NCBI RefSeq assembly: GCF_050320075.1
Contig: NZ_CP190018.1
Reading direction: 5' to 3' (one strand)
Length of the DNA: 64,000 nucleotides
Source of the DNA: Escherichia coli
GTDB taxonomy: Bacteria; Pseudomonadota; Gammaproteobacteria; Enterobacterales; Enterobacteriaceae
Shown: positions 7,301-10,300 of the stretch, in pieces
Layout of the letters: every line of letters begins with the position of its first letter
How positions within the stretch are numbered: the stretch's first letter is position 1
The notes under the pieces: model-generated
Databases searched by the model: none
Told to the model about the DNA's origin: nothing
Seen by the model: the letters and a program-made list of their open reading frames with translations, nothing else
Position numbers and translations under genes: made by a program

Positions 7301-10300
7301 ATCAAAAAGTGCATGTAGCAAAGTGAGGTGTGCCGTAGACGCATCAGCATTGACATTAATTGATGTGCTAAGCGTGGAGCTACCATTTTCCAGACTGGCC
7401 TCAACGGTATCTGGTCTCGCTCCTGATTCTATCGAGGAGCGGGTATTGGTATAAGTGACGGTAGCCTTACCCTGTTCGTTCGTTACGGCTTGGCCGCCAT
7501 TCGTCATTTCGGCAGAGTTTGTTCTGCTGGTGAAGTTCACAGTCACACCTTTCACCGGAAAGCCATTATTATCAACGACTGTGGCGGTAATGACGCTGCC
7601 GGTGCTGTTCTGCGGGGTACCGGCGAATATGCTGTCTGGGACAGGCGTCAACTCGATAATTTTTGCCGCCGCTGTGTCGCCAATAAAATGCACAGTTTTG
7701 TTGTCGCTGGCACCAGTATTAGCCAGTGATGCAGTAACAGTCTGCTCACCAAAGGCAACGCCTGCGAGAGTGGCCTGCGCGATGCCAGACTCATTGGTAT
7801 TACTTTCCCCTGGGGTCAGGGTGAGGCCTGAAGAAGCTGTGCTGAATGTTACCGGAAGATTGTTCACCTCATTGTCGAACTGATCTTTGACCGTTGCAGT
7901 TAGCGTTGCGCTATCGACGCCATTACCTGTTATCTCATTTTTTGATATCTGCAGGACAACCTGAGCCGAGGTTTTGTCCGCCACAAACGTTACCGGCTGC
8001 GAATCACTGGTATTGTTATTACTCAGCGTTACGGTAACCGTATGCGTGCCCGCTTTTTTGCCTTTGAGGGTGACATGCGCTTCGCCATTGGCCTGAGTGA
8101 TGGCAATACCGTTATTTTCGAGGGTAAAGTTTGCCGCAACGTCCTGTGGCATGGTGAAGTTCACCGTTATTCCCGCCACCGGATGATTCGACGGATCTTT
8201 CACCGTTGCCGTCAGCTGCACGCTGTCGCTGTTATTCGTCACCACCTGTTGAGCAGGGATATTCAGCGTGACCTGCGCGTTGCTGGCATCGGGCGCAATA
8301 TTGACTGTCTTCGTATCGTTGTTGCCGTTAGGCAGTGTGGCTTCGGCTGTATGAACACCCAAAACCGTGCCCTTAAGGGTAACTTCAGCAACACCACTGT
8401 CGTTTGTATTGCTCGTGCTCTGACTAAGTTGTGTATCAGCCGGGTTAGTACTAAAGGTGACCGGTAGATCTATTACTACGTTATCAAAAGGATCTTTCAC
8501 TGTTGCTGTCAGCGTTGTCTCATCCACGCCATTCCCAATGATTTCCGCTTTCGAGGTTTGCAGAACGACAACTGCGCTGTCCTTATCCGCCACGAATGTG
8601 ACTGGCTGCGCATCGCTGGCATTATTGTTACCCAGCGTTGCGGTAACCGTATGCGTGCCCGCTTTTTTACCTTTGAGCGTGACATGCGCTTCCCCATTGG
8701 CCTGAGTGATGGCAATACCGTTATTTTCGAGGGTAAAGTTTGCCGCAACGTCCTGTGGCATGGTGAAGTTCACCGTTATTCCCGCCACCGGATGATTCGA
8801 CGGATCTTTTACCGTTGCCGTCAGCTGCACGCTGTCACTATTATTCGTCACCACCTGTTGAGCAGGGATATTCAGCGTGACCTGCGCGTTGCTGGCATCG
8901 GGCGCAATATTGACTGTCTTCGTATCGTTGTTGCCGTTAGGCAGTGTGGCTTCGGCTGTATGAACACCCAAAACCGTGCCCTTAAGGGTAACTTCAGCAA
9001 TACCGTTCTCATTAGTATTACGCGCGTTCAGACTCAGTTGCGTGTCTGCGGGAGAGGTGCGGAAGACTACTGACAAATTTTTAACCACGTTATCAAAAGG
9101 ATCTTTCACTGTTGCTGTCAGAGTCGTCTCATCCACGCCATTCCCAATGATTTCCGCTTTCGATGTTTGTAGAACGACAACCGCTCTGTCTTTATCCGCC
9201 ACAAACGTCATTGGCTGTGTATCGCTGACATTGCTGTTAGCCAGACGAGCCGTGATCATATGCGTGCCCGCTAACGTGCCGGTCAGGGAGGCGATTGCAA
9301 CCCCGTTACTATCCGTCATGCCTTTTCCGCCGTTACTAATCGAGAACCGACTTGCGACGTCGTTTGGCACAGTGAAGGTGATTTCTTTATCTTTTAGTGG
9401 GTTGCCATTTTTATCCTGCAAGGTTGCAGTCATATGTTGCGGAGCTGTGTTGGTGACGGTGATCTCGCCTGAGGGCACACTGAGGGTCAGGGCAGCAGTA
9501 CTTTGATCACCGATAAAATTCACCTGTTGACTAGCCTGGGAACCAGAGCTGACAGAGGCCGTAACCGTATAATCACCATTTTTCAAACTGGTCAGCGTGG
9601 CTGTGGCGATCCCGTCGTGGCTATTCACTTCGGTTTGGCTCAGTTTCGCCTCTGCTGAATTAACATTGAAGGTTACCTTGACGTCATTGAGCAGGTTGCC
9701 TTTTGCATCCCGAACTGTCGCGGTCATTGTGGCGCTGTCATTGCCGTCAGCGACCACTTCATTTTTCGACTTCTGCAGATCAACCTGCGCGGTACTCGAG
9801 TCGCCGACAAAACTGACGATTAACGTTTGTTTCACGCCATTTTCAAGGGTGACTTCAACCGTGTTGTCTTCCTGCTTACTACTTTTCAGATCAAAATTCG
9901 CCAGACCATTAACATCCGTTTTTGCGGTGTTTTGATTGTTAAAGGAAGTTGCCGATCCGCTTAATACCGCAAACGTGACGGTATGATCATTGATTGGGTT
10001 GCTTCCCTCATCAGCGACATTGACCGAGACGGTGTTTGCTGCATTCTCATTGGCGAGCACACCATTATTGCTGGCAGATAATGTCGCAATTTTCGCTGAC
10101 TGCGGGTTGGCGTCGATGATAAATCCAGCGGTATGCAAATCTTCATTCCAGTTTTGCATTAACAGCTTCGCAGTAAGCCCACTGCCTTTGGTATAGGCGG
10201 TATAGGTCGCCTTATAGACGCCATCTGCGGTTTCTTTCCAGTCAGTAGTGACTCCTGGTTTCACGTTGTCGATGCTGACTGCGGTATTCAGTTGCTGTTT

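Follow-up and report, generated by a model that had tools for sequence, protein, structure and literature searches.

The question raised by this locus is whether the near-identical tandem repeat inside the adhesin gene yeeJ is real, what it encodes, and how it bears on the length of the protein in different strains. The analysed window is a stretch of 64,000 nucleotides from Escherichia coli (NCBI RefSeq assembly GCF_050320075.1, contig NZ_CP190018.1), and the features discussed below are listed in Table 1. The coding sequence runs from the annotated ATG at 12307 and specifies 2660 amino acid residues; it is PGAP CDS WP_137473673.1 in the 100%-identical record NZ_CP117020.1. The length of 2685 residues in the first-pass annotation is correct for a mechanical open reading frame from an upstream TTG, but not for this coding sequence. 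The gene order tRNA-Ser, mtfA, tRNA-Asn, yeeJ, GT9, shiA is common to this locus and K-12. Outside the indel the nucleotide identity to the K-12 gene is 97.6% over nucleotides 1-3209 and 95.9% over the last 3,891 nucleotides. Judged by synteny and by this identity of 96-97.6%, the gene is the orthologue of K-12 yeeJ.

A Pfam scan of YeeJ gives IAT_beta with 376.9 bits, Big_1 with 848.5 bits in 16 stretches, and Invasin_D3 with 489.5 bits. The IAT_beta barrel (PF11924, cut-off 22.3 bits) lies N-terminal to the passenger, and the passenger, a tandem of Ig-like Big_1 and Invasin_D3 domains, is C-terminal to the barrel, as expected of type Ve. LysM is not listed in the scan at E <= 1e-3; it was assigned via Prosite PS51782, and peptidoglycan binding has been demonstrated (Martinez-Gil 2017, PMC5595812). 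The N-terminal part of the gene runs collinear with its K-12 counterpart, at 97.6% nucleotide identity. In the tip region, residues 2472-2529 give a sub-threshold Invasin_D4 match (23.8 bits, cut-off 27), and the last 103 residues are assigned to PF07979, a C-type lectin-like tip (Martinez-Gil 2017, PMC5595812). YeeJ is thus very probably a type Ve (inverse) autotransporter adhesin, of which the repeat would be the copy-number-variable part of the extracellular stalk. This high confidence covers the best explanation as a whole, that is, the repeat anatomy of the stalk, the unit changes driven by recombination and the separate K-12 deletion.

Table 1. Features of yeeJ in the window (positions in window numbering; aa, residues of the 2660-residue protein)
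Feature	Position	Strand	Basis
yeeJ, inverse autotransporter adhesin, long 'UMN026-type' allele, two repeat units	4325-12307	-	ORF, PGAP, Pfam
Inverse-autotransporter beta-barrel domain, aa 144-419	11051-11878	-	PF11924, E = 9.2e-113, profile positions 2-279/279
Tandem repeat array, period 609 bp, gene nt 3036-4469	7839-9272	-	Self-BLAST, offsets 609 and 1218
Big_1 domain a1, aa 1038-1136, 99 aa	8900-9196	-	Full-length Big_1, 70.4 bits, profile 2-91/93; 86% identical to a2
Big_1 domain b1, aa 1137-1240, 104 aa	8588-8899	-	Full-length Big_1, 75.4 bits, profile 1-93/93; 96% identical to b2
Big_1 domain a2, aa 1241-1339	8291-8587	-	Register and identities
Big_1 domain b2, aa 1340-1443	7979-8290	-	Register and identities
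Core copy K1, gene nt 3308-3667, C-terminal third of a1 and most of b1	8641-9000	-	6 mismatches/360 bp to K2
Core copy K2, gene nt 3917-4276	8032-8391	-	Ungapped identity profile
906-bp segment, three Big_1 domain equivalents, absent from K-12 yeeJ	8193-9098	-	K-12 alignment; matches Martinez-Gil 2017 fragment
LTATVKDP-coding motif in a1, CTGACAGCAACAGTGAAAGATCC, left K-12 deletion end point	9099-9121	-	Junction reading
LTATVKDP-coding motif in b2, CTGACGGCAACGGTGAAAGATCC, right K-12 deletion end point	8193-8215	-	Junction reading

The near-identical tandem duplication seen at first pass is real and far beyond chance. In a self-BLAST of yeeJ at an offset of 609 bp, positions 7839-8663 match 8448-9272 with 84.9% identity over 827 columns (923 bits, E = 0), while at an offset of 1218 bp the identity is 67.8%. 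The period is therefore 609 bp, or 203 codons, instead of the roughly 606 bp first given, and the array holds 2.35 units in frame. A repeat search also matched 7974-8273 with 8583-8882 at 94%. In an ungapped identity profile the almost identical core proved to be nearer 360 bp than 370 bp in length, with six mismatches (98.3% identity) and a longest exact run of 160 bp. A second near-identical patch of 81 bp pairs 8480-8560 with 9089-9169, and the repeat flanks are 55-80% identical. At the protein level the two cores K1 and K2 do not differ, and two differences in a 121-codon window fall in its edge codons only; the 203-residue units agree at 181 of 203 positions (89%), and their last 121 residues are identical. 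A third, diverged copy after 9180 does extend about 80 bp beyond 9190, but the DNA similarity ends at 9272. Self-BLAST detected no other self-similarity in yeeJ at the DNA level, and the remaining Big_1 array is mostly old and diverged. Tandem Repeats Finder found nothing over yeeJ, but it handles periods of up to 500 bp only and therefore says nothing against a 609-bp repeat.

Each unit comprises two complete Ig-like Big_1 domains, one of type a (99 residues) and one of type b (104 residues), as the full-length matches of a1 and b1 bear out for the earlier reading of two Ig-like repeats. The interval 7980-9190 first assigned to the duplication is practically the four-domain block a1-b1-a2-b2 (7979-9196). 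The domain order in the alternating stretch is b0-a1-b1-a2-b2-a3. Protein identity is 54-86% among a-type domains and 41-96% among b-type domains, but only 30-38% between the types. Next to a1, at about 9197-9508, lies the older paralogue b0, whose protein identity to the b domains is 41-42%. The a-b unit had no match among PDB sequences at E <= 1e-3; its Pfam assignment is unambiguous. Three distinct haplotypes exist for the loop at the C-terminal end of the a domain (core residues 14-29).

The distribution of the units was surveyed in 5,426 complete E. coli genomes, about 2,900 of which are yeeJ-positive. A single unit (2457 residues) was found in 48 genomes as single-piece matches, two units (2660 residues, the class of the window's allele) in about 1,180, three units (2863-2871 residues) in 29, and the K-12 form (2358 residues) in about 1,650. 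The one-unit and three-unit classes were counted from single-piece rows and record spans, whereas the two-unit and K-12 classes were estimated by subtraction and from spread samples. Counting by at least 80% query coverage is unreliable here: megablast extends into flanks of 70-85% identity, and pieces that re-use the same record sequence are joined. A synthetic four-unit query returned only two-unit relatives, as such joined pieces. Intact one-unit alleles are those of GN06156 (2457 residues) and TR01; intact three-unit alleles are those of GF60 (2871 residues), AST240 (2870 residues) and G6/7 (2863 residues). The comparison of yeeJ length across strains, which the first-pass annotation had named as a check, thus shows a unit number polymorphic from one to three, and its claim that the repeat alters adhesin length holds between strains, in intact, in-frame coding sequences.

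It is important to consider how the units change. The core copies were compared for 24 copies from 12 strains, in which K1 and K2 are intermingled. Within a genome, K1 and K2 differ at 5 to 25 positions per 360 bp, and the mean distances between genomes are 17.8 (K1-K1), 18.1 (K2-K2) and 18.8 (K1-K2). These distances are equal, so that the paralogues are no more diverged than the orthologues. This absence of an orthology signal across strains points to unequal recombination together with gene conversion. The junctions of the one-unit alleles lie inside near-identical tracts, at different places: the register switches inside the 360-bp core in GN06156 and in the 81-bp patch in TR01. In comparison with EDL933, TR01 has 56 mismatches upstream of its junction and only one downstream, a contrast that marks TR01 as an inter-allelic recombinant. 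In the two-unit alleles of MB53 and LCP17 the upstream segment has been converted to the inter-unit type. From these sequence comparisons we infer a recombination mechanism for the unit changes. Whole units would be added or removed when homologous units pair out of register, by unequal crossing-over that involves sister chromosomes or incoming alleles, or by replication slippage; each such change would stay in frame and always move exactly two folded domains. Gene conversion, a non-reciprocal exchange, would repeatedly re-homogenise parts of the units.

A static ancient duplication, in which similar paralogous domains persist with neither ongoing exchange nor length change, would agree with the invariant unit number among near-identical alleles and with the age and divergence of most of the YeeJ Big_1 array. 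It is nevertheless very unlikely. Alleles of one, two and three units occur in several backgrounds, the flanking segments are mosaic, and the junctions differ among the one-unit alleles; the variable core divergence within genomes (5 to 25 differences), the missing orthology signal between strains and the intermingling of K1 and K2 also speak against it.

A further reading, that of a high-frequency contingency locus (phase or antigenic variation) with stalk length changing inside a single clone as it colonises, is equally improbable. Units that lie 609 bp apart and share near-identical tracts of 81-530 bp would be favourable substrates for rearrangement, both RecA-dependent and RecA-independent, as is established for tandem-repeat deletion in E. 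coli. Periscope Proteins have been proposed to vary over short time scales, and the three haplotypes of the a-domain loop would also suit such a locus. However, only three unit numbers were observed, two of them infrequent (48 and 29 of about 1,255 genomes). All 17 records with the window's allele, at 99.9-100% identity, have two units, which indicates that unit changes are rare on epidemiological time scales. In addition, yeeJ is poorly expressed in K-12 in the laboratory (Martinez-Gil 2017, PMC5595812). With a period divisible by three, such a locus would lack on/off switching.

An assembly artefact, with a spurious second copy or a collapsed higher number, is the least probable reading and can practically be set aside: repeats of this size are known to cause misassembly (Goh 2019 raises the point for inverse autotransporters generally) and the one-unit and three-unit records show that differing copy numbers have been deposited, but the 1,701-bp region recurs in 16 other complete genomes at 99.9-100% identity, each time as one piece with two units, a two-unit allele is carried by about 1,180 complete genomes in all, the copies differ at six core sites and have flanks of 55-80% identity, and the coding sequence is intact and in frame. 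Chickens, a swan, wastewater, hospitals and patients are the sources of these 16 genomes, which stem from different studies and laboratories. The repetition of the structure in these assemblies leaves no sign here of the collapse against which the first-pass annotation had warned. No exact match between the copies exceeds 160 bp, a length that paired short reads can bridge. Some of the one-unit or three-unit records could be assembly errors.

The K-12 allele is not one unit shorter. Its length of 2358 residues, given correctly at first pass, is confirmed by the K-12 record, and the protein studied here is indeed longer; the excess is, however, not a 203-residue unit but a 906-bp segment of 302 residues, which makes the gap a three-domain deletion. 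K-12 nucleotides 1-3209 align with nucleotides 1-3209 of the long allele, and K-12 nucleotides 3187-7077 with 4093-7983, the junction being read base by base. The LTATVKDP motifs of a1 and b2 at the two end points are 23 bp long and share the exact 11-bp sequence GTGAAAGATCC; further copies of the motif are located at 8802-8824 (b1) and 8490-8512 (a2). The head of the K-12 junction domain is 100% identical to a1 and its tail 97% identical to b2, and the whole still scores 78.1 bits as a full-length Big_1 match. Because each motif ends at residue 33 of the domain that contains it, the chimera is a correctly registered Big_1 domain. The K-12 allele can be read as a separate, derived microhomology deletion with a chimeric Big_1 domain; the deletion would have joined the LTATVKDP microhomology in an a-type domain to its counterpart in a b-type domain that follows two domains downstream. 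The reverse order, with a short ancestor from which a 906-bp duplication produced the long form, was rejected because the long allele at an offset of 906 shows only background identity outside the 23-bp motif, and because the K-12 chimera of a-head and b-tail sits between a complete older a3 and b0 in both alleles. Outgroups were searched with a degenerate DNA pattern for VKDPSNHPVAG, which returned nothing in species-representative genomes, and with a peptide-pattern scan using 312 residues of the passenger, which returned only two tiny contaminant contigs.

A change of length in YeeJ would only alter the distance of the C-terminal lectin-like tip from the outer membrane. In published tests no phenotype has been linked to the difference in length: the only one that set the 2358-residue against the long variant gave no phenotypic difference (Martinez-Gil 2017, PMC5595812). 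It is conceivable, though doubtful, that the a-b pair, and not a single domain, is a selected length unit and that the four length classes are kept in the species by selection. Duplicating dissimilar domains (30-38%) would let the stalk grow through near-identical DNA repeats with no identical Ig neighbours and so avoid inter-domain misfolding, and selection might fit lengths of 2358, 2457, 2660 and 2863 residues to how thick the O-antigen or capsule layer is in each lineage. As a biofilm adhesin YeeJ is widespread in E. coli, and it is also popular as a scaffold for surface display. Its four discrete in-frame lengths are useful for judging assemblies and for engineering stalk length, and also for typing and for pangenome clustering, in which protein clusters are split by length variants. 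The importance of the result is limited mostly to the correct annotation of yeeJ, the K-12 reference allele being probably derived, by a deletion that left a chimeric Ig domain. For concerted evolution in the 'Periscope' stalk of a Gram-negative species, the population data offer a small, clean example.

It remains to compare YeeJ with known systems. Intimin, invasin and FdeC share with it an N-terminal periplasmic part, the IAT beta-barrel (PF11924), a chain of Big_1/Invasin_D3 domains and a C-terminal lectin-like tip, but have 3-9 diverged Ig domains and no near-identical DNA repeats. Wrobel et al. 2018 (J Struct Biol 201:171) are said to have found almost identical tandem Ig domains in the passenger of the invasin-like molecule YrIlm, an inverse autotransporter of Yersinia ruckeri, and to have inferred evolution by duplication from the repeat structure. 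This is a different protein from a different species, and the likeness is taken from the context in which it is cited by Goh 2019 and the Periscope review.

Periscope Proteins (PMC8201768; review PMC9704523) are, like YeeJ, single-chain surface proteins with a stalk of long tandem repeats that are highly identical in DNA and vary in number between strains; homologous recombination has been proposed, and inverse autotransporters are explicitly included. YeeJ itself appears in the Periscope table as cluster 53 (E. coli, minrep 2, maxrep 3, DNA repeat identity 0.98; Whelan 2021, PNAS 118:e2101349118, PMC8201768 Dataset S1). The repeats found here have the expected identity (89% in protein, 84.9% in DNA overall and 98.3% in the core) and vary in number between related strains (one, two or three). 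The Big_1 fold and the reported surface exposure of the passenger (PMC5595812) suggest that they would fold independently as a rod-like stalk projecting a functional tip. Unlike classic cases, the variable part of YeeJ is small (2-6 of about 17-21 Ig domains) and its range narrow, one to three units against up to 46 repeats. The unit also differs from those of SasG, Rib or SHIRT arrays in pairing dissimilar domains, so that identical domains are never direct neighbours.

The closest comparison is with the long 'UMN026' variant of yeeJ, defined by a 906-bp fragment with three additional Big domains whose sequence is repeated from the MG1655 gene (Martinez-Gil 2017, Sci Rep 7:11326, PMC5595812). 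Gene and locus are the same, and in the alignment with K-12 the insertion is exactly 906 bp. The variable-length stalk of yeeJ is therefore already known, and the present finding is correct but ordinary. Martinez-Gil 2017 describes two variants only, while here the long class splits into alleles of one, two and three units (2457, 2660 and 2863-2871 residues); this split and the putative derived deletion in K-12 are refinements and not a new phenomenon.

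The gene carrying the repeat is identified as yeeJ by its synteny (tRNA-Ser - mtfA - tRNA-Asn - yeeJ - GT9 glycosyltransferase - shiA) and by 96-97.6% identity to K-12 yeeJ, one indel excluded. The window matches the chromosome of E. coli MLI106K3 (NZ_CP117020.1) with 100% identity. In the protein, Pfam matches an inverse-autotransporter beta-barrel (376.9 bits) and a Big_1/Invasin_D3 array of 16-17 stretches. The length of 2685 aa in the first-pass annotation holds for the mechanical reading frame, but the annotated protein is shorter (see table); the length given there for K-12 YeeJ is right, at 2358 aa. 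The adjoining GT9 gene is intact here; K-12 and several of the other strains examined carry a pseudogene instead, with an internal stop, a frameshift or an IS truncation.

Features of the yeeJ region and of the neighbouring prophage, in window coordinates
Feature	Position	Strand	Remarks
GT9 glycosyltransferase gene	3011-4063	plus	350 aa
Mechanical ORF with repeat	4325-12382	minus	2685 codons, upstream TTG start
Annotated yeeJ CDS	ATG at 12307	minus	2660 aa, MATKKRSG...
Segments aligned at offset 609	7839-8663; 8448-9272		
Block a1-b1-a2-b2	7979-9196		
Core copies K1; K2	8641-9000; 8032-8391		
81-bp patch	8480-8560; 9089-9169		
LTATVKDP-coding motif	9099-9121; 8802-8824; 8490-8512; 8193-8215		4 copies, one per domain
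Segment missing from K-12	8193-9098		906 bp
a-domain C-terminal loop	8890-8960; 8281-8351		core aa 14-29
Lambdoid prophage	~13.8-64 kb		
AbiH-family gene	~24,070-24,980		
Insert in prophage capsid gene	~40,650-52,630		NZ_CP117020.1 1105724-1117704

The near-identical tandem duplication noticed in yeeJ is confirmed by self-BLAST and by an ungapped identity profile. Self-BLAST aligns the gene with itself at an offset of 609 bp (84.9% over 827 columns, bit score 923), with a second, weaker match at 1218. The period is 609 bp, or 203 codons, and not ~606 bp, and the array is 2.35 units long. Identity along the array is a mosaic. The near-identical core exists as described, although it measures 360 bp, not ~370 bp, and contains 6 mismatches; it is separated by 88 bp at 55-75% identity from an 81-bp patch at 95-100%, and the flanks are at 60-80%. 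The longest exact run common to both copies is 160 bp. The repeat was not reported by TRF, for the sole reason that its period limit is 500 bp.

Each unit consists of two complete Big_1 domains, a (99 aa) and b (104 aa), both matching the full Pfam profile, in agreement with the earlier reading of two Ig-like repeats. The local domain order is b0-a1-b1-a2-b2-a3, and the block formed by the two units coincides almost exactly with the interval first noted (7980-9190). The third, diverged copy placed after 9180 is in fact the older paralogue b0 together with the last stretch of the DNA-level repeat. The protein identity is 54-86% among a-type and 41-96% among b-type domains, but only 30-38% between the types. 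The two units share 181 of 203 residues, including all of the final 121, and the six nucleotide differences cause no amino-acid change within the core. A PDB sequence search with the a-b unit found no relative at E <= 1e-3. The core is otherwise conserved across strains, but the a-domain C-terminal loop forms a small hypervariable patch in it, with three discrete haplotypes (reference; A16V/P21L/N25G/D26Y/K28T; T19I/P21L/N25R/T29I) shuffled among array positions.

The number of units varies between strains. The repeat region was found in about 2,912 of the 5,426 complete E. coli genomes searched, about 1,650 being of K-12 type and 1,255 of long type. One unit occurs in 48 genomes, matched as a single collinear piece, and three in 29; about 1,180 two-unit genomes follow by subtraction, and a four-unit query picked up only two-unit relatives, as joined pieces. 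Both extremes include intact coding sequences: one-unit GN06156 (2457 aa) and O157:H7 TR01, and three-unit GF60, AST240 and G6/7 (2871, 2870 and 2863 aa), the last three with self-similarity at offsets 609, 1218 and 1827. The comparison across strains thus bears out the proposal that the repeats alter adhesin length. As for the concern over assembly collapse, no sign of collapse or spurious duplication was seen in the window. The two-unit copy number appears trustworthy, because another 16 complete genomes, unrelated in source, have the 1,701-bp region with both units in one piece (99.9-100% identical) and the longest exact run is so short.

The K-12 protein is 302 aa shorter than the window allele, a difference for which the 203-aa unit does not account. 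K-12 nt 1-3209 align with nt 1-3209 of the long allele, and nt 3187-7077 with nt 4093-7983; K-12 therefore lacks 906 bp, a deletion that is an event separate from the gain or loss of units. Both end points fall within the 23-bp motif CTGAC(A/G)GCAAC(A/G)GTGAAAGATCC, coding LTATVKDP. Since K-12 has the a1 variants of this motif and then continues with b2 sequence, the two parts are joined within its 11 exactly matching bases, GTGAAAGATCC. In a-type and b-type domains alike the motif ends at residue 33, and the resulting domain is therefore an in-register chimera; its head is 100% a1 and its tail 97% b2, and it covers the whole Big_1 profile (78.1 bits). We infer that the short allele is probably derived from the long one, because in both alleles the site lies between complete older a3 and b0 domains, and identity at offset 906 in the long allele is no higher than background.

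Exchange between units was assessed from 24 core copies in 12 strains. Within a genome, K1 and K2 differ at 6 positions in the window and at 7, 11, 21, 21 and 25 in other two-unit alleles; the copies inside three-unit alleles differ at 5 to 24. The mean distances between genomes (K1-K1 17.8, K2-K2 18.1, K1-K2 18.8) are indistinguishable, so array position carries no orthology signal, and haplotype blocks recur at other array positions from strain to strain. In MB53 and LCP17, the segment preceding the first core is of inter-unit type, apparently through conversion, and the near-identical tract grows to about 530 bp. The one-unit junctions differ: the register switches within the core in GN06156 and in the 81-bp patch in TR01. 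Compared with EDL933, the latter has 56 mismatches upstream of its junction and 1 in the 4.1 kb downstream, and is therefore an out-of-register recombinant between alleles. Unequal homologous recombination and gene conversion between units would produce these patterns and are the probable mechanism.

Other forms of the locus were also seen. In a spread sample, roughly 40% of records match only ~30% of the yeeJ query, and the matching parts crowd into a ~2.4-kb stretch still annotated as a beta-barrel and Ig-like protein; such records seem to have a considerably shortened gene or a remnant at this locus and probably correspond to what earlier surveys classed as 'yeeJ-negative'. Natural isolates often carry an inactivated yeeJ, by a frameshift (KW21), a premature stop, Q48*, within K2 (23CRST021), IS1 truncation (A30) or an IS3-family insertion (some O157:H7 strains, Z885). 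Some three-unit alleles (GF60, AST240) end in ...EYFHVACYKNI versus ...GFAHATCYKNL and have a longer yeeJ-GT9 spacer, which points to a different allelic form of the lectin-like tip domain. In species-representative genomes the YeeJ passenger matched only two contigs, of 543 bp (Terrisporobacter petrolearius) and 221 bp (Corynebacterium striatum ATCC 6940), at 95-100% identity, evidently E. coli contamination of these assemblies; no outgroup for yeeJ was found among them.

The window also holds a lambdoid prophage, in which the annotation splits the major capsid gene into two fragments, with an ~11-kb insert between them. The insert encodes a tyrosine integrase, HTH regulators, an Icd-like protein, primase, SSB and a DUF2971 gene, as well as a major capsid, a head-decoration protein and a small terminase (internal stop); it resembles a capsid-forming satellite (PICI / P4-like) that has inserted into the prophage capsid gene. 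An AbiH-family abortive-infection gene and an adjoining unannotated 463-aa ORF lie between hokD and the DUF977/YdaT region.

Taken as a whole, the original observation is confirmed and its interpretation supported, with corrections to the period, the protein length and the K-12 difference. The present analysis adds the exact unit with its a/b structure, counts for four length classes, the probable origin of the K-12 allele from microhomology, and a concerted-evolution signal at the population level. The phenomenon and the membership of YeeJ among the Periscope Proteins are already published. Martinez-Gil et al. 2017 (PMC5595812) described the MG1655 and UMN026 length variants, differing by a 906-bp fragment, three extra Big domains from 'a repeated section', and found no phenotypic difference between them in biofilm assays; Goh et al. 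2019 gave no further data on the repeats. Under the definition given by Whelan et al. 2021 (PMC8201768), a Periscope Protein is a surface protein whose tandem repeats are long, highly identical and variable in number; their Dataset S1 lists E. coli YeeJ (cluster 53) with 2-3 repeats and a DNA identity of 0.98. The presence of the NCTC strain NCTC9038 among our three-unit genomes is consistent with that NCTC3000-based result. A review also counts inverse autotransporters as Periscope Proteins (PMC9704523). The repeat is an ordinary, already documented trait of a variable-length adhesin stalk.
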